Origin: Armatimonadota bacterium
GTDB taxonomy: Bacteria > Armatimonadota > Fimbriimonadia > Fimbriimonadales > GBS-DC
NCBI GenBank assembly: GCA_037444405.1
Contig: JBBIML010000033.1
Coordinates: 1-28,907 of the forward strand
Direction of reading: 5' to 3'
DNA length: 28,907 bases
Numbering within the stretch: the first letter of the stretch is position 1; each line of letters begins with the position of its first letter. Shown piece after piece: positions 1 through 27,531 of this stretch. Under the pieces are notes generated by a model. That model had not been told where the DNA came from. It ran no database searches and saw only the letters and a program-made list of their open reading frames with translations. The position numbers were made by a program, and so were the translations under genes.

Positions 1-25
1 TTACGCCCCGTGAGGTCAGCGCGCC

Positions 26-2953
26 TCAACGCGAATACCGTATTGGCAACCGATGCTTCCAGCTGATGCGCCAGAGCGCCTTGCACGCTGCCTCGCGCAC
101 CCACCAATCCTCATCCTGCAGGCGCGAGATGAGGTGTGGCACCGCCGCACGATCGCCTATCGCCCCCAACGCCTCGCACGCTGCCTTGCGCACATCCTCA
201 TCCTCATCCTGCAGGCGCGGGATGAGTGCCAGCACGCTCAGCTTGCCAGCGGATTGCAGGGTAGGCAAAGTGTACTCGCTGAGCATGTTAGAGAAAAGAT
301 AGCGATGCACCACCCTCTCTGCCACCCTCTGGCGCACGGTCTCATTCGGCACGCGCCCGAAGCCCACCACTCGCGCCTGCAAAAACAGCATCGAGCCGAA
401 AATATCGTCTTTCTCCCGCTCCAATGCTTCCACCAGCGGCGTGGCGTCGTCCACCAGCCCCGCCAGGAAGGTCAACACTTCCCACCATTCGGGCTGGAAC
501 CAGAAGTGCTGGTGTATCTCGTCCAGCCGGTTCGGCTGCCGGCTGAGATGGCGCGCCGCGAGGAACTCCAGCAGGGAGCGGTGGGCGAAGCTCCACTGCC
601 CGTCGCCGCGACGGTCGTAGCCCGCGAACACCACCAGCCCCACCTGCTCCATACGCTCAAGCAGCTCACCTGGGGATATCCCCGCCACAGGCGCATTCTG
701 ACCGAAGGCTGACTCCCACTGGTGATAGGTGAACAGGTTGCTCTGGGGGTTGTTTTGGAACAGGTTCCAGGCGATTTGCTCCAGCGTTTTTGCAACCTGC
801 TCCTGCTGCACATTGCTCATCGGGCTGCTTACGCCGCGCCACTCGCCAGAGAGCAGCTTGCGAAACACATGGGCATACAGTTCGGCGTATGTGGCGTCTG
901 GGGGGAGCGCGTTTTCGCTGTGGAGCAGGCAGACAAAGGCGAGCATCAGGGGGGTTCGGCAGGCGTGGTACAGCGCGTAGTTGTCGTGCAGCTGTCTTAT
1001 CAGCTGGCTGGCGGCGGGCGACTCCGCGCCGAAGAATCGCTCCACCAGCCCACGCTGTGCCTTTCGGTCAAGGGGCGCCAGTTCGGCGGCTTCGGGCAGC
1101 GTTCGCCAGCCCAGCCACTCGCGCCGCTCGTCCCAGTGCATCGCGCGGCAGGTAACAACCACCGTGCCCCGCAGCCGCTCCAGGTGGAGGGCAATCTGGC
1201 GGAAGGCTTGCTCATGCTGGGGCTGGAGCTCATCGAGGGCGTCCACCACAATCAGGCAGCGCCCCTCGTCCAGCGCTTGCCGCAGCCACGCGTGAGCTTC
1301 TGGGGTGGCAGAGCAGAGGGCAGGCATCCCGTCTGTGAGGTTCGCCGCCGTAGAGGACGCCTCTGCCAGGCGGCGCGCGGTAATCCAGAAAGGAGCGGTC
1401 AGGTTTGTGATAGGCTCGCCGCGTTTCAGCCGTTCCAGCGCGTCGAGGGCGACCTGTCGCGCCCAATAGCGAGTGCTGAAGGTTTTGCCGCTGCCTGGCG
1501 CGCCAATCAGCGCGACGCGTTGCCCCGTGCTACGCCGTACAAACTCCTCCCAGCTGATGGCTTCCTTCGTTTCGCGATGCTCAGGCAGCTCATAGTGCGA
1601 GGCGCGTACCGCTTCGTAAGGGCTGAGCTTCTCGTCCTCGCGCTCTTGCTTCTCATGCTCCTGTCGCTGCCTCTCTTCTGGGGGCTTATGCACCAGCACC
1701 TGCAGTTGCGTGAACAGGTCGCTTGCGCAGAGCCGTCGACCCGAACGGTACCATGGCGTCTCGTCCAGCTGCGCAACAAGCGTTTCCAGGTAATTTTTCA
1801 CGGCGAACGCCTGGCGCGTGGCGTGCTGAAAGGCTTCTTCCAGTGTGGCAGCAGGGATCAGGCGACTCTCCCAGTCGGGCAGCTGGTTGCAGGCGCGTGG
1901 ATGGTCTGCTTGCGGTACCACCAGGCGCAGGCTGGGGTATCGGGCGAACGCGAGGGTTTTGGCGTCGTAGCGACCGACGGAAGTCAGCGCGCCGCTGTCA
2001 TTCAGGGCGCCGGTGAGGGCGCAATTGGGGTCGGGCGCGGGGCTGTCTGCCTGCAACGCCCACAGCCCCACGCCGAGCGCCGCGCCGACCGAAGAACCGC
2101 TGAGGGGGCACAGAAGCCAGAGAGCGTCTTCGCTCTTGTAGCGCGTCAATCTCCAGCGGACGGCGCGCTGCAGGTTGACAAGCTGCCACGCGCGTTCCAG
2201 CTGTTCCCCAAATTGCCCATCCCATCGAGTGGTCAGCATCAGGCGCGGGTCGGGATAGAGTTCGGGGAAGGGGGCGTCGGTGAGGCTTACGGTCATATTT
2301 GCCAGCACGCCGTCGCCGCCAGGCGTCGCCATCGGGAAGGGCGCCGCGACGGCGCGCAAGCCATCCGCCCACACGCGCCCACGATAGAACTGGAGCAGGT
2401 CATACAGGGGGTTCAGCAGCCACTGCGGGCAGTGGCTGTGAATCTGGCAGAGCATGTCCAGAAGGGGGTTTTCAGCAACCCAGCTTGGGGTGAGTTGCTG
2501 TGGGGGAGTGTCGGTGGGGTTCAGGAGGGCGGCAGCGCGCAGGAGCCACTCCGAGGCTTGCTGAAGACGCCCTTCGGGCGGTTCACTGGTCGCGTCCAAC
2601 GCGTGCGCGGCGAGGGCGGTCGCAAGCGCCCACCGAAAAACGCGCAGCGAATGCTCCCCCGAACACCCCCGACAGAGAGGGCAAGCACAGGCGAAGCCTT
2701 CGAAGTTGTAGTCCAGGTCGAGCAGGAAGGGGGGCATCGACGCGCTGTTTGCCAGCGTCCACCACTCCTGCAGTTTCTCTGGACAGTTCCGCAGGGCGGC
2801 GGCGATGGCGTCGAACAGATGCCCCTCCTCGAAGAGCGATTTGCGGGCGCAGGCGCTGCCCTCCTCGCCGATGTCGGGCTGGAGGGCAAGCGTCAACGCC
2901 TCAGCGTAGCGCGCCTGACCAATCGCGGTATTAAGCGCGTCTAACTGGCTCAT
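26..2953 (-). CDS. Lon(S16)-like protease domain + NACHT (STAND) NTPase + C-terminal HEAT repeats fusion protein
   Basis: NACHT motifs: Walker A GAPGSGKT, Walker [23 protein letters not shown], winged-helix [12 protein letters not shown]. Two HEAT repeats ([20 protein letters not shown] / [20 protein letters not shown]). Lon-like GSSVGAALG...[21 protein letters not shown]. Start placed at ATG 2953, which has GAGGGG upstream, instead of the track's 3001. Confidence 0.85.
75..226 (-). repeat. Imperfect direct repeat with 93-bp period encoding two HEAT repeats
   Basis: 75-133 and 168-226 are nearly identical (...gcacgctgcct.gcgcac...atcctcatcctgcaggcgcg.gatgag). Confidence 0.8.
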
Positions 2954-3525
2954 GGCTGGCTCAACCCCTCGTCTCTCAGCACATTGGGGAGCTGGCGCCA
3001 CCGCTCGCGATGGCGCGGAGCGAACTCGTCGGCATGCGCCTCAATCCAGCGATTCAGCGCGTCGATGGACGGCTTCGTGGGGGCGGCGCGCCACCTCTAC
3101 TGGAACACTTCAGGGTCGGCGTATCTCGGCACGATACGCGCAACCTCAGGGCAGCCGACGACCCTCCCCGGCAGGACTACCTTCGTGCTGTAGCGCCCCC
3201 ATGCGTTCGGCTTCGAAGGCATTATCACGAAGGCGGTCAACTCTTCCCGCACATTGCGCTCCGGCTGCGTAGCGTCGTACCACTGCCAGTAGCAGTGGAG
3301 CAGGGCGCCTCTCCACTCTTCGCCGCCCGACAGCACCACCTGCACATGCCCCTCGAAGGGTTCCAGAGTGATTTTAAGGTTCAGCCCCTCCGGGTTCCAT
3401 GTCTGTGGCAGTATGGCATCAGGGGGCGCCGCCTCAAGCGTGGGCGCTTCCTGCTGGCGCGGTCGGCGCAGAGCCGCCAGCAAACCCAGCAATTGCTCAT
3501 CGGTCAGAAAGTCCCGTGTTGCCAT
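2950..3525 (-). CDS. Hypothetical protein (candidate sigma partner / protease substrate) interrupted by an in-frame TAG at 3097-3099
   Basis: GGAGGT RBS precedes ATG 3525 ([13 protein letters not shown]). The frame stays open for 48 codons past the TAG, ending at a TGA (2952-2950) that overlaps the NACHT ATG as ATGA. Confidence 0.65.
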
Positions 3526-3542
3526 CTCAGTTACCTCCCGTC

Positions 3543-4190
3543 TCAAATTAGCGCGTTCTGCTGGCAAAACTGTACCAGTTCAGGGCAATTCCTTAGGTTC
3601 TCCAGGAGATAGTTGAATCGTTGCCGTGCGTTATCATGGCTGATGCAGAGCAGGCGCGCAACCTGCGTGAAATCCAGCTCCTCTACCGCTCTGAGATAGA
3701 GAATCTGCCAGTCCAGATCGTTGTTCAGGCACTGCCTGATAATCTGGAAGAGTTGCGTCCTGACATCATCGTCAAGGGCTGGCGCGAATTGGCAGGGAGC
3801 GGGAATGTCCCACTCCTGATCCTCTTCCGGTTCCATTTCTGGGTTCAATGGGACTTCGCGCCGAGCAGCGAGTCTTCTGAATGCCTCAGAGACTCTACCG
3901 CGCAGCACGACGCAGAGATAGATTCCAGGCCCTGCCTCGTGCTCATACTGCTCCCACAGCTGGCGCAGGCGCTCTTGCTCGATGGCGCGGCATACCGTGT
4001 CCCGCACGACATCTTCCACTTCCGCTGCTGGTAAGTTAGGATACCGCCCTCTCACGATTTGTTCCAGCGCGCTGGCTGCCTGATTAAGGATTGTAGCAGC
4101 CACTTCCCACGCACCTTCGTCGCCCTGTTGGGCAAACTGCTCCAGCGCCTTGCAGAACCGTGTCCGTTCCTCGTCACTGAACATCGCCAT
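3543..4190 (-). CDS. ECF-type sigma-70 family RNA polymerase sigma factor (divergent)
   Basis: AQQGDEGAWE start, region-2-like AEVEDVVRDTV, region-4 HTH ILYLRAVEELDFTQVARLLCISHDNARQR. GGAGGG RBS before ATG 4190. Confidence 0.75.
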   Translation of the reverse strand: MAMFSDEERTRFCKALEQFAQQGDEGAWEVAATILNQAASALEQIVRGRYPNLPAAEVEDVVRDTVCRAIEQERLRQLWEQYEHEAGPGIYLCVVLRGRVSEAFRRLAARREVPLNPEMEPEEDQEWDIPAPCQFAPALDDDVRTQLFQIIRQCLNNDLDWQILYLRAVEELDFTQVARLLCISHDNARQRFNYLLENLRNCPELVQFCQQNALI

Positions 4191-4256
4191 GCTTCCCTCC
4201 CGCATAGAAAGGGTTTTCCCGTTAGCAGGATTCGCCATGATGGCGCGGAATCCTGC

Positions 4257-4820
4257 TTAATCGTCGCTCTCGTCGCTCTTTTTGCGGAGGAGCGAGCGGG
4301 TTTCCTCGATCGCGTAGAAGTGGCTGGCGACCACGCGAAGGAGGGGCGAGACATGATTCTTGTAGCTGATGACGGTGACCTCGATCTCACGCCCCCGAAG
4401 CCACTCGGCGATGCGCACAAAATCGCCGTCGCCTGTGCAGATGACCACCATGTCGCCCTGCTTCAGGCGGTGCCGCTCGACGGCGCGTCCGAGCCAGAAC
4501 GCCATCTCCACATCGGCGTTGCACTTCAGATCCCCGTTGCCATTGTGAATGGGGTTGACGCGATGCACCTCAAAACCTGTCTGGCTGAGCATCAGCTGGA
4601 GGTTGATAGTCTCCGGCTTGTCCGTCACGAAAGCAGCCGCTTTTTCCACACGCCCAAACTGCTGACAGAACTTCAGCAAGGCGTCATAATCCACGCGTAG
4701 AGTCGGGTGAATCATGTTCTGGGTATCCACGACCATTAGCACCTTGCGGGTGCAGGCAGAACGCCTGGCGTTCTGCCCATCAGTGTTGCGATTCTTCGCC
4801 ATCGGTTCTACCAGAGTCAT
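4257..4820 (-). CDS. NYN domain (LabA/DUF88, PIN-like) nuclease
   Basis: Acidic motifs VVDTQN, KCNADVEMA, ICTGDGDF, followed by LRGREIEVTVI and SPLLRVVASHF. GGAGGTGA RBS before ATG 4820. Confidence 0.85.
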   Translation of the reverse strand: MTLVEPMAKNRNTDGQNARRSACTRKVLMVVDTQNMIHPTLRVDYDALLKFCQQFGRVEKAAAFVTDKPETINLQLMLSQTGFEVHRVNPIHNGNGDLKCNADVEMAFWLGRAVERHRLKQGDMVVICTGDGDFVRIAEWLRGREIEVTVISYKNHVSPLLRVVASHFYAIEETRSLLRKKSDESDD

Positions 4821-4845
4821 CGTTGTCTTCACCTCCATCATGTAA

Positions 4846-5310
4846 TTAAGGCGTCTGGGGTTCCAGTGTGAAATTTGGGCGTTGCGACTGGAGCATGCTG
4901 GCGAGCGATTCATCCCCGCCACCTGCATGGGGACAGAGGCAGGGCGATAGAGGGCGTGCAGGGTTCACCGTGCGCAGGTGAGGGACGGCGCCCTCATAGG
5001 TGAGGCGGAGCCAGCAGCTGGTGTGCAGCCGTGCGCTGAGGTAGTCTTCCAGCATGCGCAGGGCAAGCCCCGTCGCAATCTGGTTGAGCGTGCGCAGGCT
5101 GCCCCGTCGCTCGCGGCGCCATTCACGCTGGAGTTGGTCAGCGTGTTCCGTCTGCGCCCCCGCGCGGATAGCAGCGATGTGGTCTTCGCGCGCGACGCCG
5201 CCCGTGCAGAGGGCGCCCGTGAGTCGATTCACAACCATAACGCCTTTGCGGTCTGCGAGTCGCCGCGCGGGAAGTGAGAAGGTGGGCGGGAAGGGTACCG
5301 ACTGCATCAT
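4846..5310 (-). CDS. Hypothetical protein
   Basis: 154-aa ORF filling the gap between the receiver ORF and NYN. It starts immediately after, and in frame with, the TAG of the upstream ORF. No recognisable motif. Confidence 0.45.
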   Translation of the reverse strand: MMQSVPFPPTFSLPARRLADRKGVMVVNRLTGALCTGGVAREDHIAAIRAGAQTEHADQLQREWRRERRGSLRTLNQIATGLALRMLEDYLSARLHTSCWLRLTYEGAVPHLRTVNPARPLSPCLCPHAGGGDESLASMLQSQRPNFTLEPQTP

Positions 5311-6022
5311 CTACGATGGATGCAGACTAACGACAGTCACTTCTTGCTGGGACTGTACCTGCACAACGATTTGCTGGGAACGCTGGAGCGACGCCTGTTG
5401 GAGCTTCATCTGGTGACCCCGCTGCTCACGCTCGACGAGACTCTGAGCCAGCTGCTGCAAGATGGATTTATCGGGCGGCTTGTAGAGATAGTCGTATGCC
5501 CCTGCCCGGAAGGCTTCGCGTGTGGTTTCGAACCCAACTGCATGGGCAGTCACGATAATGTAGAGCGGTTCGGGAAAATGCTGCTTGAGAGTCTTCAGCA
5601 CCGAGACACCGCCCGTGTTGGCAGGCTCATCTTCCTGCAGGCAGGTGTCAATCAATACGAGGTGGGGGCGGCGGTGGTTCAACAGCTCAAAGGCAGTTTC
5701 GAGGTTGTTTGCGTAGAACCACTCAAAGTCAGGGAGCTGCTCTTGGAGCGCCTGATAGAAATCGGGCAGGTCATCGTAGACGAGAATGCGGGGGCGCAGG
5801 GGCGTCGATTCTGGTTCATCGGAGTGCAGGCGAAGATAAAGTGTTTGAATCTGGTCCCACTGAGCGGAGAGCTGGATTTTTGTGCGTCGTATCAGTGGTC
5901 GTAGTACCTGTTCAATCCGACGCTGGATATCTTCAGGTCCTGCAGTACCGTTGGCTTGAAGGAGCCACTCTATGAGTACTGGGTCGTACTGTAGGAGCTT
6001 ACCCTCGCTTTTGTGAAACTGG
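5311..6022 (-). pseudogene. Response-regulator receiver-domain protein lacking its 5' end
   Basis: The frame is open from 6057 and reads ...RILVYDDLPDF...PHLVLIDTCL...IIVTAH...AFRAGAYDYLYKP, a complete receiver domain. There is no ATG/GTG/TTG upstream of the domain; the first TTG (5682) lies inside it. Confidence 0.65.
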
Positions 6023-6298
6023 ATAGTTGATGTACCCCATCGCCAGCAGAAGCCCGTTCAGGCGATCGGCGGGCGTCTCGTCGATCGGCGCATGTAGCAG
6101 TTTGGGCACTTTGAATGAAAGGCTCTGCTTCTCCACTATCGGGTCAATCGTTAGCGTGTACCCCTCATGATCTTCGGAGCGGCGCCATCCCGTGTGAATA
6201 ATGCCCTCCTGCTCGAAGGGTTCCTCCACTGCCTTGTATCGGCTCCAGCCGAACCGCTCCAGATAGTCCGTCAGCATCTTCAGAGTCACCTGTGACAT
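5999..6298 (-). CDS. YbjN/T3SS-chaperone-like protein, probably 3'-truncated
   Basis: AGGAGG RBS before ATG 6298 (MSQVTLKMLTDYLERFGW). Ends LLLAMGYINY-PVSQKRG*, 99 aa, shorter than expected for this fold. Family call is from resemblance only. Confidence 0.5.
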   Translation of the reverse strand: MSQVTLKMLTDYLERFGWSRYKAVEEPFEQEGIIHTGWRRSEDHEGYTLTIDPIVEKQSLSFKVPKLLHAPIDETPADRLNGLLLAMGYINYPVSQKRG

Positions 6299-6572
6299 GG
6301 CCCTATCCTCCTGTGCAGACTGGTACCTTTTTATACCCCGTTCTGCAAAAATTACAAAGCCCTCCTCGCCCAGCAGCAACTGAAAGGTCGCAGGACGCCG
6401 CCGATGCCGACACACCCCACAACGCCCCAAACACTGCCAGGCCTTCGGCGCCGAGGCGTTGGTGCAGACGAGTTTCCATCTGTTCCACGAGGGAGCGGTT
6501 CGGTTCCATCGTACTAAGATTGTAGCCCATAAGGGCTAAAATTGATGCGGATGGATTCTACTACGGGTGGGG

Positions 6573-6578
6573 TATAAT
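6573..6578 (+). promoter_or_regulatory. -10 box TATAAT 8 nt upstream of the GTG start (candidate leaderless promoter)
   Basis: GGGGTATAATccctgctgGTG, with no SD sequence. Confidence 0.55.
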
Positions 6579-6586
6579 CCCTGCTG

Positions 6587-7015
6587 GTGAATCGCAAAAT
6601 CGGTGGGAATGTCTCGGTGGAGGACTATCTGAAGGCGATCCTGCGCCTGTCCGAGGGTGGGGAACCTGTCAGCACAACCGCACTGGCACAGCATCTGGCT
6701 TGCACGCCTGCGGCAGTATCGCAGATGTGCAAATCGCTGGCACAGCAGGGGCTGGTGCGCCATCAGCCGTACCGGGGCGTGCGCCTGACCAAGCAGGGAC
6801 GCGCCTACGCCGAAGAGATCGTGCGCCATCACCGCCTGCTGGAGCGCTACCTGTGCGAGCATCTCGGCTTCAGCCCCGAAGCGGCTCATGCCGAAGCCGA
6901 ACGACTGGAGCATCACATCTCCGAAGAGTTCGAAGACCGCATCGCCCGCTTGATGAACGAGCCTGAGACCTGCCCGCACGGACAGCCCATCCCACCCAAG
7001 CGACCTGTCAGGTAA
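6587..7015 (+). CDS. mntR: DtxR/MntR family metal-dependent transcriptional regulator (no FeoA domain)
   Basis: EDYLKAI, HHRLLERYL, EAERLEHHIS, CPHGQPIP motifs. Confidence 0.88.
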   Translation: MNRKIGGNVSVEDYLKAILRLSEGGEPVSTTALAQHLACTPAAVSQMCKSLAQQGLVRHQPYRGVRLTKQGRAYAEEIVRHHRLLERYLCEHLGFSPEAAHAEAERLEHHISEEFEDRIARLMNEPETCPHGQPIPPKRPVR

Positions 7016-23096: not shown

Positions 23097-25856
23097 ATGT
23101 GGAGCGCGCAGGCGTTGCCGAAGGGCTGGACACAGCAGGAGTTTGAGTGGCTGCAGGCGCTGGGTCAGGCATCAACGGTTGCCGAGCAGCAGAAACTCCT
23201 GCAACAGCGGCGGGAGTGGCTGGAGCCGAAATGGGTGGAGCGGTTGCAGGCGACTCTCCGCACAAACGCTCCCGCAGAAGCGCAGGCGTGGCTGCCCGCC
23301 GCGCACGGGCTGCGCATCGTTGCCGACAGCCTGCGCCACGACCGCTTGAAAGGCGCTACGCGCCTGCAGCTCGCCATCCTCTATCTGACCCTGTATGAGC
23401 TTGATTCTGCCTGGCGCTGGGCGCAGGAGAGTCACATGCTGTTTCGCAAAGCGAACCATGTGGAGGGGATGGCGCAGAGCCTGCACCTGCAAGCCGATAT
23501 TCTGGTAGAGCGTGGCGAGCTTCAGCAAGCCATCCGTCAGATGCGGCAGGCACTGCCCCTCTATCAGCGCCTGCGCAACCCGGAACAGCAGGCGCATGGC
23601 GAGCTGGGGATGGGTCGCCTGTATGCGATGGCGGGCGAGCCAGAGCGGGCGCTCCACCATCTGCAGCGAGCGCAACAACTCGCCCATCAGGCAAAGGCGC
23701 ATAACCTGCAGGCTGTGATCGAACTGACACAGGGCATCGTTCTGCGGGCGTTAGGGCGGTTCGATGAGGCGCTCCAGATGCATCAGCAGGCGTTAGAGCT
23801 GTTTCGGCAGCTGAACCGCCCCGTGAATGTGGCACGGCAAATCGCCAACATCGGGCTGGTCTACTGGTCGATGGGTCTCGTGCAGGAGGCGCGCTGGCAC
23901 TATCAGCAGGCGATGCCACTTTTTAAGGAGCTGAACCTCCAGCAGGATGTGGCTATCTGCCTGATGAACACCGCCCTGCTTTTGCAAGCTGAGGGTGAGC
24001 TGGATCGCGCGCTGGAGACCTGCCAGCAGGCGCTGCAGTTGAGTGAGTCGCTCCATGATGCGGTCGGCATCGCCTTTTGCCAGGGCACGCTTGCCGACAT
24101 TCTGAACGCGAAGGGCGATTATGAGCGGGCGCTGGTTTATGCCGAGCGCGCTGTTCAGGATGCCCGGCGCAGCGGACTGAAGAATGTCTATCAGAGCGCC
24201 CAGTTGCGGCGTGCCGCCTGCCTGCACGAGTTAAAACGCTATGCTGAGGCAGAGCGCATTCTCACCGAGCTGGTGAAACAGCTGGATCCCGTCACGGATC
24301 GCCCTGCGCTGATTGAGGCGCTCTTTCTGCTGGGTGAGGGCGCACGGCGGCGTGGGGATTGGGCACGCGCCCGCCGATACTACGAGCGCTGCCTTCAGGC
24401 GATGGAGCGCCTGCACGGGCTTCAGGCGTTGCCACCTGAAGATTGGAGCCGTGCCTTCCAGCAGTTTCAACGCACCATTTCATGGATTGCCTGCGCGTAT
24501 GCGGGTGCGAACCTGCCCGAGCGTGCCTTCGAAATCTGTCAGCGGGGCAAGGGCATCGGGCTGCGCCTGGCGATAGAGAGCCGTCGTGCGCCGATAGGGC
24601 TGTCCCGCTCCGATTCGGCGCGTTTCGCCCGCCTGCGCCAGCGCTGGGAGCGTGCCGAACAGCAGCTAACGGCTGCCCGCACGCTCAGCGAGCGGCAGCG
24701 TGCCCAGCGCGACTATGAGCGCGCGCTCAGCGACTGGAGCCGCGCCCGCATGGAACTCGCGCGGCGCAATCCGCGCTACCAGCTCGTGTTTCAGCAGCCC
24801 GTTCACCTGCAGGAGCTGCCCCTCACGCCCGACACCGCGCTGATCGAATACGCGCTCACGCCGAAAGGCGTGGCCATCCTGATTGTTCGCCGTGAAGGCA
24901 TGCGCAATCGGGTGCGGGCAACCCTGGTGGCGGTCGCCGAATCGCAGCTGCGTTCGGTCATCGGCAGCCTCTATCGCTGGATGGGGCAAGCGGGTGACCT
25001 GCGCTCGATTCACGAAGCGGCACACCAGCTCTATCGCTGGCTGGTACAGCCCGTGGCGAGCCAGTTGCGCGGGGTGCGGCGCGTGATTGTCTGCCCGGAT
25101 GGGATTCTGCATCGGGTGCCATGGACGCTACTGCGCACTCCAGAGGGGCGTTACTGGACGGAGCGGGTGGCGCTCGTGCAGGTGGCGTCGGCGTCGGTGT
25201 GGGCAAGCGTGCAACGGCTGCGCCGTCCGCCAGCAACGGCGCGCCCGCTGATGGTCGCGCTCTCCCAGTTTCCCGCTGTGTCGGGAGGCAGCCCTGGTCG
25301 CGCGCGGCTCGCACCGCTGCCTGGCATCCGACAGGAGCGACTCACACTGAGCCATCTGCTGGGGCGCTCCCTGCAAGTGCTGGGCGAATCGGAGGCGAGC
25401 CGTGCGCGCGTGTTATCCGCGCTACCACGCGCCTCGCAGATTCACTTCGCGACGCATGCGGTGTCGAACCCTCAGCTGCCACTGTTGAGTGCGCTGGCGC
25501 TGTACGGCAGGGCGACTCCTGAGTGGCTTTATGCCTATGAGGTGCTGAACCTGCCGTTGCGGGCGCGGCTGGTGTTGCTATCGGCGTGCAGCACGGCGGG
25601 CGACACCCTCACGGGCGATGGGCTGATGGGGCTGGCGTGGGCGTTTCTGGCAGCAGGCTGCCCCAGCGTGGTCGCAACACTCTGGAAGCTGCCCGACGAG
25701 GGCGTGCCCATGTGGACGGAAGCCTTCTATCGCGCTCTGCAGGCGGGTCAATCCGTTGCGGAAGCCGTGCGTCAGGCGAATCTGCACCTGCTCAAAAGCC
25801 CGCGCTTCTCGCACCCGCGCTACTGGGCGGGCTGGATATTGTTCGGCAAAGATTGA
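23097..25856 (+). CDS. TPR + CHAT (caspase-like) domain protein
   Basis: Long TPR array, then ALIEYAL, IVCPDGILHRVPW, IHFATHA (His), LVLLSACST (Cys), GLAWAFLAAG, SVVATLW, HPRYWAGWILFG. TGGTATACT extended -10 upstream. Confidence 0.93.
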   Translation: MWSAQALPKGWTQQEFEWLQALGQASTVAEQQKLLQQRREWLEPKWVERLQATLRTNAPAEAQAWLPAAHGLRIVADSLRHDRLKGATRLQLAILYLTLYELDSAWRWAQESHMLFRKANHVEGMAQSLHLQADILVERGELQQAIRQMRQALPLYQRLRNPEQQAHGELGMGRLYAMAGEPERALHHLQRAQQLAHQAKAHNLQAVIELTQGIVLRALGRFDEALQMHQQALELFRQLNRPVNVARQIANIGLVYWSMGLVQEARWHYQQAMPLFKELNLQQDVAICLMNTALLLQAEGELDRALETCQQALQLSESLHDAVGIAFCQGTLADILNAKGDYERALVYAERAVQDARRSGLKNVYQSAQLRRAACLHELKRYAEAERILTELVKQLDPVTDRPALIEALFLLGEGARRRGDWARARRYYERCLQAMERLHGLQALPPEDWSRAFQQFQRTISWIACAYAGANLPERAFEICQRGKGIGLRLAIESRRAPIGLSRSDSARFARLRQRWERAEQQLTAARTLSERQRAQRDYERALSDWSRARMELARRNPRYQLVFQQPVHLQELPLTPDTALIEYALTPKGVAILIVRREGMRNRVRATLVAVAESQLRSVIGSLYRWMGQAGDLRSIHEAAHQLYRWLVQPVASQLRGVRRVIVCPDGILHRVPWTLLRTPEGRYWTERVALVQVASASVWASVQRLRRPPATARPLMVALSQFPAVSGGSPGRARLAPLPGIRQERLTLSHLLGRSLQVLGESEASRARVLSALPRASQIHFATHAVSNPQLPLLSALALYGRATPEWLYAYEVLNLPLRARLVLLSACSTAGDTLTGDGLMGLAWAFLAAGCPSVVATLWKLPDEGVPMWTEAFYRALQAGQSVAEAVRQANLHLLKSPRFSHPRYWAGWILFGKD

Positions 25857-26797
25857 GTCAGCGCCGCACGCCAGCGCTGAACCAGCGGGTCATTCGGGCG
25901 GTTCGGCAACGCCTGCAACGCCTCACGATAGCGACCCAGCCGATAGAACAGCATCGTGCAGGTGTAGGGCGCACGCTGGCGATGCTGGCGCGCCCAGTTC
26001 AGCTGTTCTCGCTCCTGTGCGGTGAGCATCCGAAAGCGAAAATGCTGGCGCGGCTCGCTGCCAGGCAGTGCATCGGGCGATAGCACGGTGATGGTCAGCT
26101 GATAGGTAGCGCCCGCTTGTAATTGCTTGCCCGGTGGCAGGGTTGCCCGTGTGCCGTTGATCCGCAGGCTTATCGTATCGCCGTCGGGTTCAGCGATCAG
26201 CGTGGCGCGATAGCCGCTGGCGTCGGGCACGGACGCCCACTCGAACACGGGGCGCGGGTCGGTCAGCCCTTCATCGACAGGTTGGAGCAGGCGCACCAGA
26301 GGCGCACTCGCCGATTCGGAGCGGGTGACGGAGGGCGGGTTCGGAAACTGGAGCGCCGCTTTCGCCGCCCAGTCGGGCAGGCGGAGCGCACCCTCGTACA
26401 CCGCGCCGCGCTCCACTCGCACCGCCACCTGCCACGCGGGATAGCTCCGTCCCACCAGTAGCCAGAGCAAGATGATAGCCCCAACCGCAGCAGCCGTTGC
26501 AGGCGCCAGCCACCAGAAGAGGCGACGCAAGCGTCCAGCACCCTCCGATAGACCCCGAATCACCTGCTCGGTGGCGAGCATCTCCCTGTAGGCGGCGCGA
26601 CACATCGGGCACTCCACGATGTGATTTATCCGCTCGCGGTAGCCCCGACAGCGGCGACCCCGCTCCACCAGTTCGATCAACTGCTCCGCAGATCGGAAGA
26701 GCATCTGCACCACCGTTCGTTGCCCCGATGCCTGAATTGAAACAGGACATGTCATGATACCTGATATCCTCCCTGTGCGCTCAGGGCATGCCTCCAT
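25820..26797 (-). CDS. Membrane-anchored zinc-binding (ZAS) anti-sigma factor with extracytoplasmic Ig/FN3-like domain
   Basis: HIVECPMC matches HxxxCxxC. TM segment WWLAPATAAAVGAIILLWLLV, then PRPVFEWASVPDASGY. Start is ATG 26797 (TGATG-coupled to the sigma gene) or ATG 26756. Confidence 0.78.
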   Translation of the reverse strand: MEACPERTGRISGIMTCPVSIQASGQRTVVQMLFRSAEQLIELVERGRRCRGYRERINHIVECPMCRAAYREMLATEQVIRGLSEGAGRLRRLFWWLAPATAAAVGAIILLWLLVGRSYPAWQVAVRVERGAVYEGALRLPDWAAKAALQFPNPPSVTRSESASAPLVRLLQPVDEGLTDPRPVFEWASVPDASGYRATLIAEPDGDTISLRINGTRATLPPGKQLQAGATYQLTITVLSPDALPGSEPRQHFRFRMLTAQEREQLNWARQHRQRAPYTCTMLFYRLGRYREALQALPNRPNDPLVQRWRAALTQSLPNNIQPAQ

Positions 26798-27531
26798 CAC
26801 CAGTTGATGAACCGCGCGATTTTGAGGCAGGCGCGGCGCAGCAATAGCTGGTTGCGTCCCGGATGGGCTAAGGCATGCCGTTCGGCAGGGGTCAGCTGTT
26901 CGGACGGCTTGCCACGCATCTCCAGCTGTTGCACCGCCTCCCAGATACGCTCCATCCCGCCCACCAGCGCCGGCTGGTGCTGCACCACATAAGCCAGCAC
27001 CTTCGCCCGCGCCCGCATCAGATGCGTGCGCACCGTGTTGATGTTCAAATGTAGCATCGCGGCTATCGATTCGGTCGTCTCGTCCTGTGCATACAGCAGG
27101 ATAACCTGCCGCTCGGTCTCGGAGCAGACTTTGCCGATAACGACTCGAAGCTGCTGCGCCATCTGCTCCGTCCCTATCTGTTCGACAAGACTCGATTCGG
27201 GTGATTCCTGTTGCAAGAATCGGGGGGCTGGCTCCGACTCGAAGGTGCTGAGCGGGATGTCGGTACCGGCAACGCGCTGATAGAAGGTGCGCAGGCAGTT
27301 CGCCGCGATGTGCATCAGCCACGGTTCGAAAGGCGTGTCGGGTTTGAGCCGGGGCAGGAAGCGGGCGACGCGCAACAGCGTCTCCTGCAGGATGTCCTCA
27401 CTGTCCTGCTCCGACCTGGCACGCTTTCGAATGTAGCGCCATAGTAGGGGACGATACCGCTCCAGCAGCTGTTCCAGTGCCGTCTCGTCGCCCTCGCGCG
27501 CCGCCTGCAACAGCACCTCAATCTCTGCCAT
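26797..27531 (-). CDS. ECF sigma factor with C-terminal extension
   Basis: AAREGDETALEQLLERY, DSEDILQETLL, FEPWLMHIAAN, IAAMLHLNINTVRTHLMRAR, followed by about 60 extra residues. Confidence 0.92.
   Translation of the reverse strand: MAEIEVLLQAAREGDETALEQLLERYRPLLWRYIRKRARSEQDSEDILQETLLRVARFLPRLKPDTPFEPWLMHIAANCLRTFYQRVAGTDIPLSTFESEPAPRFLQQESPESSLVEQIGTEQMAQQLRVVIGKVCSETERQVILLYAQDETTESIAAMLHLNINTVRTHLMRARAKVLAYVVQHQPALVGGMERIWEAVQQLEMRGKPSEQLTPAERHALAHPGRNQLLLRRACLKIARFINW

Follow-up and report, generated by a model that had tools for sequence, protein, structure and literature searches.

At one end of an Armatimonadota contig (GenBank assembly GCA_037444405.1, contig JBBIML010000033.1) lies a gene for which a sequence-only reading of the DNA had claimed an intact Lon-type Ser-Lys dyad at the head of a NACHT protein. 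The whole stretch analysed, 28,907 nucleotides, is called here the window. The question raised by this locus is whether the gene really encodes a Lon-type protease joined to a STAND NTPase and what such a protease would serve for. Immunity in bacteria, plants and animals alike depends heavily on STAND and NLR-like receptors, and the known bacterial outputs are mostly lethal enzymes. The analysis confirmed that residues 200–381 of the product are a Lon-homologous domain, and a catalytic dyad, Ser288–Lys332, is predicted in it. Since the gene stands just behind the genes of a sigma factor and of a small partner protein (named X here), its product is probably a sensor-triggered protease switch for gene expression.

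The gene (Lon-NACHT-HEAT) is read on the minus strand. The numbering of its residues begins here with the ATG at 2953; with the GTG at 3001, which lies upstream, as start codon the product would be 16 residues longer (open reading frame (ORF) 26..3001, 991 aa). A database protein (P0003) consists of the identical 975 residues with the start at ATG 2953. The G+C content of the window is 58–67%, so long shadow ORFs are common in it; a plus-strand ORF of 740 aa (722..2944) was rejected as a shadow of the Lon-NACHT gene, as it shows no protein family; the DNA in this place has a G+C content of 62–66%. Protein families, as well as all peptides quoted in the sequence-only reading, were found only in the minus-strand product 26..3001. 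The quoted peptides are all present in this one gene of 975 aa: the eleven-residue peptide corresponds to residues 284–294 (window 2072–2104) and the thirteen-residue peptide to residues 89–101 (window 2651–2689). The span assigned earlier to the dyad region, 1810–2330, covers residues 209–382, i.e. nearly the modelled Lon domain, and the distance from Ser to Lys is 44 residues, as had been stated (for S679/K722 of E. coli Lon we take the spacing to be 43). The layout of the protein is tripartite: the Lon-type domain (residues 200–381) is followed by the NACHT module (residues 479–643, with 31.8 bits in Pfam NACHT against a cut-off of 26.7) and by HEAT repeats (residues 907–963). The Lon-type domain is N-terminal to the NACHT module, in agreement with the earlier claim. 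The Walker A (GAPGSGKT) and Walker B (LIVVDALDE) motifs are intact and can be read directly from the sequence.

A profile search against Pfam Lon_C, proposed earlier as a check, gave a divided answer: the window protein taken alone stays below the cut-off, and at the family level the homology is significant. The match of the single protein is correctly placed (residues 299–376 of the GTG form against profile positions 106–181). NCBIfam LonB gave E 0.036 with it, and the best phmmer match in the PDB is the protease domain of M. jannaschii Lon (1xhk, E 0.026); five of the seven PDB rows are Lon and two are PDZ proteins, with the Ser and Lys motifs aligned. Three close homologues besides the window protein were found among 8000 scored candidates. 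The profile built from these four sequences (A1) retrieved 232 proteins at E ≤ 1e-3 from 1.84 billion cluster representatives, 44 of them at E ≤ 1e-10. A family alignment of 60 sequences including the window protein (A2) matched 47 distinct Lon sequences in the PDB with E-values from 4.4e-15 to 7.5e-7, RadA and ComM being far behind, and a narrower profile (A3) also drew canonical LonA genes from whole genomes at about 1e-16. Among 49 relatives scanned with Pfam, Lon_C is found at E ≤ 0.01 in 13, and its cut-off is passed by four (P0016, 25.5 bits; P0018, 31.8; P0024, 26.5; P0054, 30.0). The N-terminal Lon-type domain of L014 (G164:C124) is a helpful link from canonical Lon to the divergent forms fused to STAND modules: residues 157–247 of its 799-aa frame score 55.7 bits with Lon_C, and the frame has no AAA+ module.

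The predicted structure agrees with this assignment. The AlphaFold2 model of residues 1–414, calculated with the A2 alignment, has a mean predicted local distance difference test score (pLDDT) of 95.1 and a predicted template-modelling (TM) score of 0.90, and is composed of a helical part (residues 1–192) and an alpha/beta part (residues 200–381). A Foldseek search with the model gave 184 matches at E ≤ 1e-3, and the best ones are proteolytic domains of E. coli Lon (E 3e-8, target TM-scores 0.73–0.77). In VIA-align the alpha/beta part superimposes on E. coli Lon 594–773 with Z 19.3 and a root-mean-square deviation (rmsd) of 2.2 Å over 165 aligned residues of the 180-residue chain. The Lon fold anticipated by the sequence-only reading, for which structure prediction and superposition had been set as a test, is therefore predicted with high scores. 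A fold search over 48,161 representative chains yielded 20 matches with Z ≥ 10.5, all of them of the Lon fold, the next match having Z 7. LonA, LonB and LonC are found at Z 17–19, ComM at 18, BrxL at 16.8 and RadA at 14–15; the Lon domain of CalpL follows with Z 12.2 (rmsd 2.6 Å, 137 residues aligned), and the Ser-Lys VP4 proteases of birnaviruses with Z 10.5–11.2.

In the HMMER alignments Ser288 and Lys332 coincide with the catalytic motifs of the solved Lon domains 1xhk and 2x36, their counterparts being the Ser of GDSA/GPSAG and the Lys of IGGVNEK/VGGIKEK. Conservation was counted after local realignment of 152 of the 232 relatives. All 147 aligned relatives and all 18 locus proteins have Ser288, and Lys332 is retained in 126 of 143 relatives and in 17 of the 18 locus proteins, so both residues are conserved in homologues as the dyad claim demands. 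Gly286 is kept in 139 of 146 relatives, Gly290 in 129 of 147 and Thr314 (codon at window 2012–2014) in 110 of 145. The conserved pattern is presumably the Lon signature G-x-S-x-G, followed by T-G and then by G-G-x-x-x-K. Selection for catalysis would be expected to leave such a picture, with an invariant Ser and with Gly286, Gly290, Thr314 and Lys332 retained at 76–95% in sequences of only 20–30% identity. The Lon-type Ser-Lys dyad reported from the letters alone is thus borne out by the predicted fold and by aligned, conserved motifs; Ser288–Lys332 is the predicted catalytic pair, from which we infer protease activity.

The position of the domain is constant within the family: every one of the 141 relatives with a match across the catalytic core has it within the first ~300 residues. 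These relatives are long proteins (median 1113 aa; 103 of them with at least 700 aa). NACHT was found in 21 of the 49 scanned relatives, mostly together with HEAT, and the other downstream modules are NB-ARC/AAA_16 with TPR, nSTAND1 with WD40, WD40 alone, FGE-sulfatase, NHL and laminin-G. Genomes of the same phylum encode proteins with Lon-type, TIR and AAA_35 domains, followed by an AAA_35-WD40 gene; the AAA_35 forms occur with or without TIR. Such Lon-type+TIR+AAA_35 proteins are encoded in L035 (4091–10140), L036 (8737–15302) and L040 (7194–12992), each with an AAA_35+WD40 gene directly after and a sigma gene before. Two STAND proteins are thus encoded side by side, and one of them combines two different effector domains. 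The number of HEAT repeats varies from two in the window protein to 8–15 in the relatives. P0004, which is 76% identical to the window protein and collinear with it over residues 1–960, has about 15, with ~430 extra repeat residues inserted between window residue 960 and the shared C-terminal tail.

The family is distributed patchily. In a sample of 301 genomes of the phylum, including that of the window, 26 gave a match at E ≤ 1e-15. Canonical LonA accounts for at least 10 of these, and two (G219, G292) were left unassigned. True family members were counted in 13 of the 300 other genomes, and none was found in the 33 genomes searched from the same order. The genome of the window carries one family copy, and a canonical LonA elsewhere (C14). 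A locus search based on A1 gave 63 pattern matches and no confirmed relative in genome contigs, and three loci (L046, L047, L048) in metagenome contigs.

The neighbourhood suggests what the protease would act upon. Of the 16 loci with an upstream flank, 13 have a sigma-70-family gene on the strand of the Lon-STAND gene and at most two genes upstream of it, usually with one gene in between. The sigma matches reach Pfam E ≤ 1.2e-4 in eight loci (L033, L034, L035, L036, L039, L040, L042 and L043), and the call is weaker or made by homology in five (the window, L046, L047, L048 and L037). The order sigma-X-Lon-STAND is alike in the window, L046, L047 and L048. The gene between sigma and Lon-STAND belongs to no Pfam family at E ≤ 1e-5. 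In the distant branch the intervening protein has an HxxxCxxC motif in all six definable loci. Among the 149 further ORF products of these loci, four have it; the motif is, as we take it, that of the zinc anti-sigma (ZAS) proteins, and one of these proteins shows a weak Pfam zf-HC2 match (E 1e-3). X of the window's own branch is an unclassified protein of ~180 aa, unlike the ZAS-type proteins of the distant branch. The AlphaFold2 model of X from L046 (pLDDT 81.6) consists of an N-terminal helix, a disordered segment (residues 21–35), a beta-sandwich and three C-terminal helices.

Complex prediction for the L046 pair supports binding of X to the sigma factor. Over three runs the modelled complex has a median ipSAE of 0.86, and the highest value among three controls is 0.02. 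In the calibration of the tool, 58 of 80 solved complexes attained the mark, as did 2 of 110 mismatched pairs, and these calibration counts hold only roughly, because custom alignments of five rows were used here. The contacts agree between runs by at least 81%, with partner pLDDT of at least 80. The predicted interface is formed by sigma residues 149–219 (Pfam Sigma70_r4 covers 172–209) and by the N-terminal helix and the sandwich edge of X.

A precedent for such an arrangement is CalpL. According to the CalpL report (10.1101/2024.05.08.593097), binding of cyclic tetra-adenylate (cA4) to the SAVED domain leads to filaments in which one subunit binds the anti-sigma factor CalpT and the neighbouring subunit cuts it; the cut falls in a part of CalpT that has little structure, and further degradation frees the ECF-like (extracytoplasmic function) sigma factor CalpS. 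On balance we are inclined to see in the window gene a STAND-gated Lon-type protease switch that would free a sigma factor in the manner of CalpL-CalpT-CalpS, without SAVED and without CRISPR. A ligand bound on the HEAT array would cause the NACHT module to oligomerise with NTP, and the oligomerisation would bring the Lon-type domains side by side for cleavage in trans. The preferred substrate would be X, the product of the gene just upstream, which would hold the co-encoded ECF-like sigma factor through sigma region 4. Cutting of X, perhaps in the disordered segment 21–35, would release the sigma factor and redirect transcription; in the distant branch the ZAS-type protein would be cut in place of X. 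The conserved neighbourhood of a sigma module speaks for an output in transcription and not in killing, and a transcriptional output is likely.

It is possible, and is put forward more tentatively, that the family as a whole represents an unnamed class of bacterial NLR-like receptors in which STAND oligomerisation would activate the Lon-type protease, a co-encoded anti-sigma protein would be cut in trans and the dedicated sigma factor, an ECF-like one, would be released, with no killing involved. Such a class would combine NACHT, AAA_16, nSTAND1 or AAA_35 modules with HEAT, TPR, WD40 or FGE-type sensors and would be a CRISPR-independent counterpart of CalpL.

Several observations weigh against the sigma-releasing switch or the steps leading to it. 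Taken alone, the window protein reaches only E 0.29 and 11.1 bits with Pfam Lon_C, against a cut-off of 21.1, and the A1 profile is weak against the PDB (E 0.17). Lys332 is missing from 17 of 143 relatives. The Lon-fold domains of RadA, ComM and BrxL match the model nearly as well as those of Lon, so the fold alone is no proof of proteolysis. Three of the 16 flanked loci (L032, L038, L041) have no detected sigma gene, and the 16 are not independent: four of them are closely related, and three of the genomes are represented by two loci each. For X, the L046 model gave no Foldseek match in the PDB at E ≤ 1e-3 and no detectable likeness to known anti-sigma proteins; matches in the Atlas had scores of at most 0.82 with TM below 0.5 and gave nothing usable. 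The link between X and the protease is gene order alone. The genes beyond the cassette in the window are housekeeping genes without the context of a defence island, and PADLOC v2 has no model for the seven Lon-STAND proteins tested, apart from repeat hits and one weak hit. Finally, the cassette of the window appears partly decayed and may be non-functional, considering the TAG in X, the ThiF remnant and the array of two HEAT repeats (described below).

The best of the other explanations, although an unlikely one in our opinion, is that the protein is a direct killer protease: the activated Lon-type domain would degrade many cell or phage proteins and abort infection, a role proposed for STAND proteins with trypsin or caspase heads, and sigma and X would only regulate the operon. 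Protease-headed STAND proteins as such are well known. For bacterial NACHT proteins, peptidases of the caspase, trypsin, transglutaminase-like and SMT4 kinds are listed in 10.1101/2022.07.19.500537; protease heads of the NACHT/Avs class are found also in PMC7159879, and Avs2 with trypsin in the preprint 10.64898/2026.08.25.746987. The patchiness of the family (13 of 300 other genomes of the phylum, none of 33 of the order) would suit a defence gene, as would cassette neighbours with relatives in a defence library (NYN, 8.2e-9; the ThiF-like protein, which resembles CBASS E1-E2, 2e-17). What this explanation leaves unaccounted for is the sigma factor and the sigma-binding or ZAS-type protein that stand, in most loci, directly upstream of very different STAND types; moreover, no defence island surrounds the gene.

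It is less probable still, and in our judgement quite improbable, that the protease processes its own chain or, in distant relatives, the downstream partner STAND protein instead of X. The match to birnavirus VP4 (Z 10.5–11.2, one entry being entitled an intramolecular (cis) acyl-enzyme), the long charged linkers that follow the Lon domain and the second, AAA_35-WD40 gene after the distant members would fit such processing; no conserved cleavage motif was seen, with no search aimed at one, and the association with sigma and X would find no explanation. Least credible is a non-catalytic module used solely for oligomerisation or for binding, like the Lon-fold domains of RadA, ComM and BrxL (Z 15–18 with the model), with the dyad as a relic: the 17 of 143 relatives that lack the Lys would agree with it, and the invariant Ser and the 76–95% retention of the other motif residues despite 20–30% identity speak against it.

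The positions of the gene, its domains and its neighbours are collected in Table 1.

Table 1. Coordinates of the Lon-NACHT-HEAT gene, its parts and the adjoining cassette genes in the window
Feature	Position	Strand	Basis and remarks
Lon-NACHT-HEAT gene	26..2953	minus	ORF list and translation; 975 aa from ATG at 2953
N-terminal all-helical domain, residues 1–192	2378..2953	minus	AlphaFold2 secondary structure, pLDDT mostly >90
Cys/His cluster C89-x-C91-P-L-C94-x6-H101, possible zinc knuckle	2651..2689	minus	Conservation
Lon (MEROPS S16) type protease domain, residues 200–381	1811..2356	minus	Family profile, AlphaFold2 model, Foldseek
Ser288 codon, predicted nucleophile, in G-S-S-V-G-A-A	2090..2092	minus	Conservation and alignment to solved Lon
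Lys332 codon, predicted general base, in V-G-R-Y-D-A-K	1958..1960	minus	Conservation and alignment to solved Lon
NACHT NTPase module, residues 479–643	1025..1519	minus	Pfam NACHT; Walker A 1481–1504, Walker B 1229–1255
Two HEAT repeats, residues 907–963, presumed sensor array	65..235	minus	Pfam HEAT_2, E 2.3e-14
Gene X, small, predicted sigma-binding	2950..3525	minus	Translation; orthologues in the same position
Sigma-70/ECF-like sigma factor gene, divergent	3543..4238	minus	231 aa; database form 215 aa
NYN-domain gene (predicted RNase)	4257..4928	minus	Pfam NYN E 8.3e-17; PADLOC NYN model E 8.2e-9
154-aa ORF, ThiF/E1-like C-terminal part	4846..5310	minus	tblastn to the L046 ThiF-like protein

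The helical domain that precedes the Lon-type domain is common to the nearer relatives only (profile matches start at positions 37–110). In the fold search it gave TPR-like matches only, at Z ~6, which is below the bar for helical folds, and no fold is assigned to it. It contains the Cys/His cluster that had been suggested to bind zinc. The cluster is invariant in the four close homologues, and of the 17 alignment rows that cover this place, 10 retain C89, C91, C94 and H101 together; C97, the fourth Cys of the cluster as first described, is not kept. As judged from this conservation, a small zinc site at C89/C91/C94/H101 is plausible. In a check for co-variation of the CCCH cluster with the type of X, L032 was found to have X of the window type yet no CCCH match to the regular expression, and no co-variation is claimed.

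The cassette order (ThiF-like)-(NYN)-sigma-X-Lon-NACHT is also present in the three metagenomic loci of close relatives. The sigma gene of the window matches Pfam Sigma70_r4 (E 3.7e-3) and Sigma70_r2 (E 0.053) in the correct order; P0159, which is 61% identical to its product, is named sigma-70 family sigma factor in the source and passes the Sigma70_r2 cut-off. Orthologues of X (177–190 aa) occupy the same position in L046, L047, L048 and L032, and X gave no match in PADLOC. The NYN gene is conserved in the near branch, with orthologues in L046 and L047. The distant relative L032, whose Lon-type protein has an FGE-sulfatase tail, keeps the ThiF-like gene, X and the Lon gene, with X directly upstream of the latter. 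The ThiF-like proteins of L046 and L032 match Pfam ThiF, and the intact form of this type resembles the E1 part of CBASS E1-E2 proteins (PADLOC, E 2e-17). A promoter and terminator scan of positions 1–6600 gave two promoter-like sites (1.0 expected) and one terminator-like site (4.6 expected), i.e. nothing usable.

Three features of the cassette suggest decay in the window copy. X runs for 142 codons (3525..3100) up to an in-frame TAG (3097–3099), after which 48 further in-frame codons lead to a TGA that lies over the ATG of the Lon-NACHT gene, the two frames overlapping by ATGA. The frame after the TAG still resembles the C-terminus of the L046 orthologue (22 identities in a local alignment of 39 residues). 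Contigs from three runs that belong to a single study carry the same letters; one of these runs may be the source of the window DNA. TAG is an ordinary stop here, 4 of 17 checked genes of the window ending in it; the TAG in X could be a recent nonsense mutation or a site of read-through. Upstream, residues 299–416 of the 428-aa ThiF-like protein of L046 match window 5211–4858 in tblastn, and the ThiF domain itself has no tblastn match in the window; by this alignment, the 154-aa ORF is a remnant or a split form of the ThiF-like gene. At the other end, the contig stops 25 bases past the stop codon of the Lon-NACHT-HEAT gene, so the array of two HEAT repeats may be either real or an assembly collapse.

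A second protease-plus-sigma neighbourhood was observed elsewhere in the window. A gene at 23097–25856 on the plus strand encodes a 919-aa protein with TPR and CHAT (caspase-like) domains, and beside it are located, on the minus strand, an unannotated 500-aa ORF (25820–27322) and an ECF-type sigma gene (26797–27531).

A literature search brought up no paper in which a Lon-type protease is linked with STAND or NACHT proteins; among the papers listed, the only one in which both "Lon protease" and NACHT occur concerns mitochondria. Two surveys of conflict systems (PMC7159879, PMC8195603), the preprint on bacterial NACHT proteins (10.1101/2022.07.19.500537) and the Avs survey of 2026 (PMC13581612) do not contain the word Lon in their main texts as far as these were available to us, and such an architecture may be listed in their supplementary tables. 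A whole-word search of the ECF classification paper PMC7826278 did not find NACHT, Lon, WD40 or STAND.

If our interpretation is correct, the Lon-type head would be a new class of STAND effector, present in at least 232 cluster representatives and in several STAND types. Since this head is steadily accompanied by a sigma factor and by a protein that is predicted to bind it, NLR-like sensing may be wired to gene expression via regulated proteolysis. The logic of CalpL, in which an oligomerisation-gated Lon-type protease acts on an anti-sigma protein and through it on a sigma factor, would then exist outside CRISPR. The system could be tested in E. coli with three or four genes.

With LonA, LonB and LonC the window protein shares the fold of the proteolytic domain over E. 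coli Lon 594–773, with the Ser and Lys motifs aligned. It differs from LonA and LonB in the absence of the AAA+ unfoldase, Lon_lid and LON_substr_bdg families of Pfam, whereas canonical LonA genes of the relatives do show the Lon AAA, lid and N-domain families. In contrast to canonical Lon, its NTPase is a STAND NACHT module and is placed after the protease domain, not before it. The layout of effector, NOD and repeat sensor is that of the NACHT/Avs proteins, with the difference that the conserved neighbour of the window gene is a sigma module.

A close likeness exists to CalpL. In both cases a Lon-fold Ser-Lys protease without its own ATPase shares its locus with the genes of an ECF-like sigma factor and of a protein that binds it (the binding being predicted here), and the protease is part of a protein whose sensor domain drives oligomerisation, as proposed here. 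The window protein has no Pfam SAVED match (E ≤ 10), its sensor being NACHT with HEAT; no cas families were found among the 22 scanned ORFs of the window (~29 kb) or among the scanned neighbours of the related loci. In structure its Lon domain resembles canonical Lon (Z 19) more closely than CalpL (Z 12). X of the window branch shows no detectable resemblance to known anti-sigma proteins, and the distant branch uses HxxxCxxC proteins instead.

In the distant branch the succession of a sigma gene and an HxxxCxxC protein is the one known from ZAS anti-sigma systems. Site-1/site-2 and Clp proteases are known to act on anti-sigma factors, whereas the protease proposed here would be a cytoplasmic, STAND-fused one of the Lon type, encoded in the same operon. 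Two of the kinds to which the system is compared, the STAND receptor with an enzymatic head and the CalpL-like switch, are already known; what is new is the linkage of a Lon-STAND gene to a sigma factor and X.

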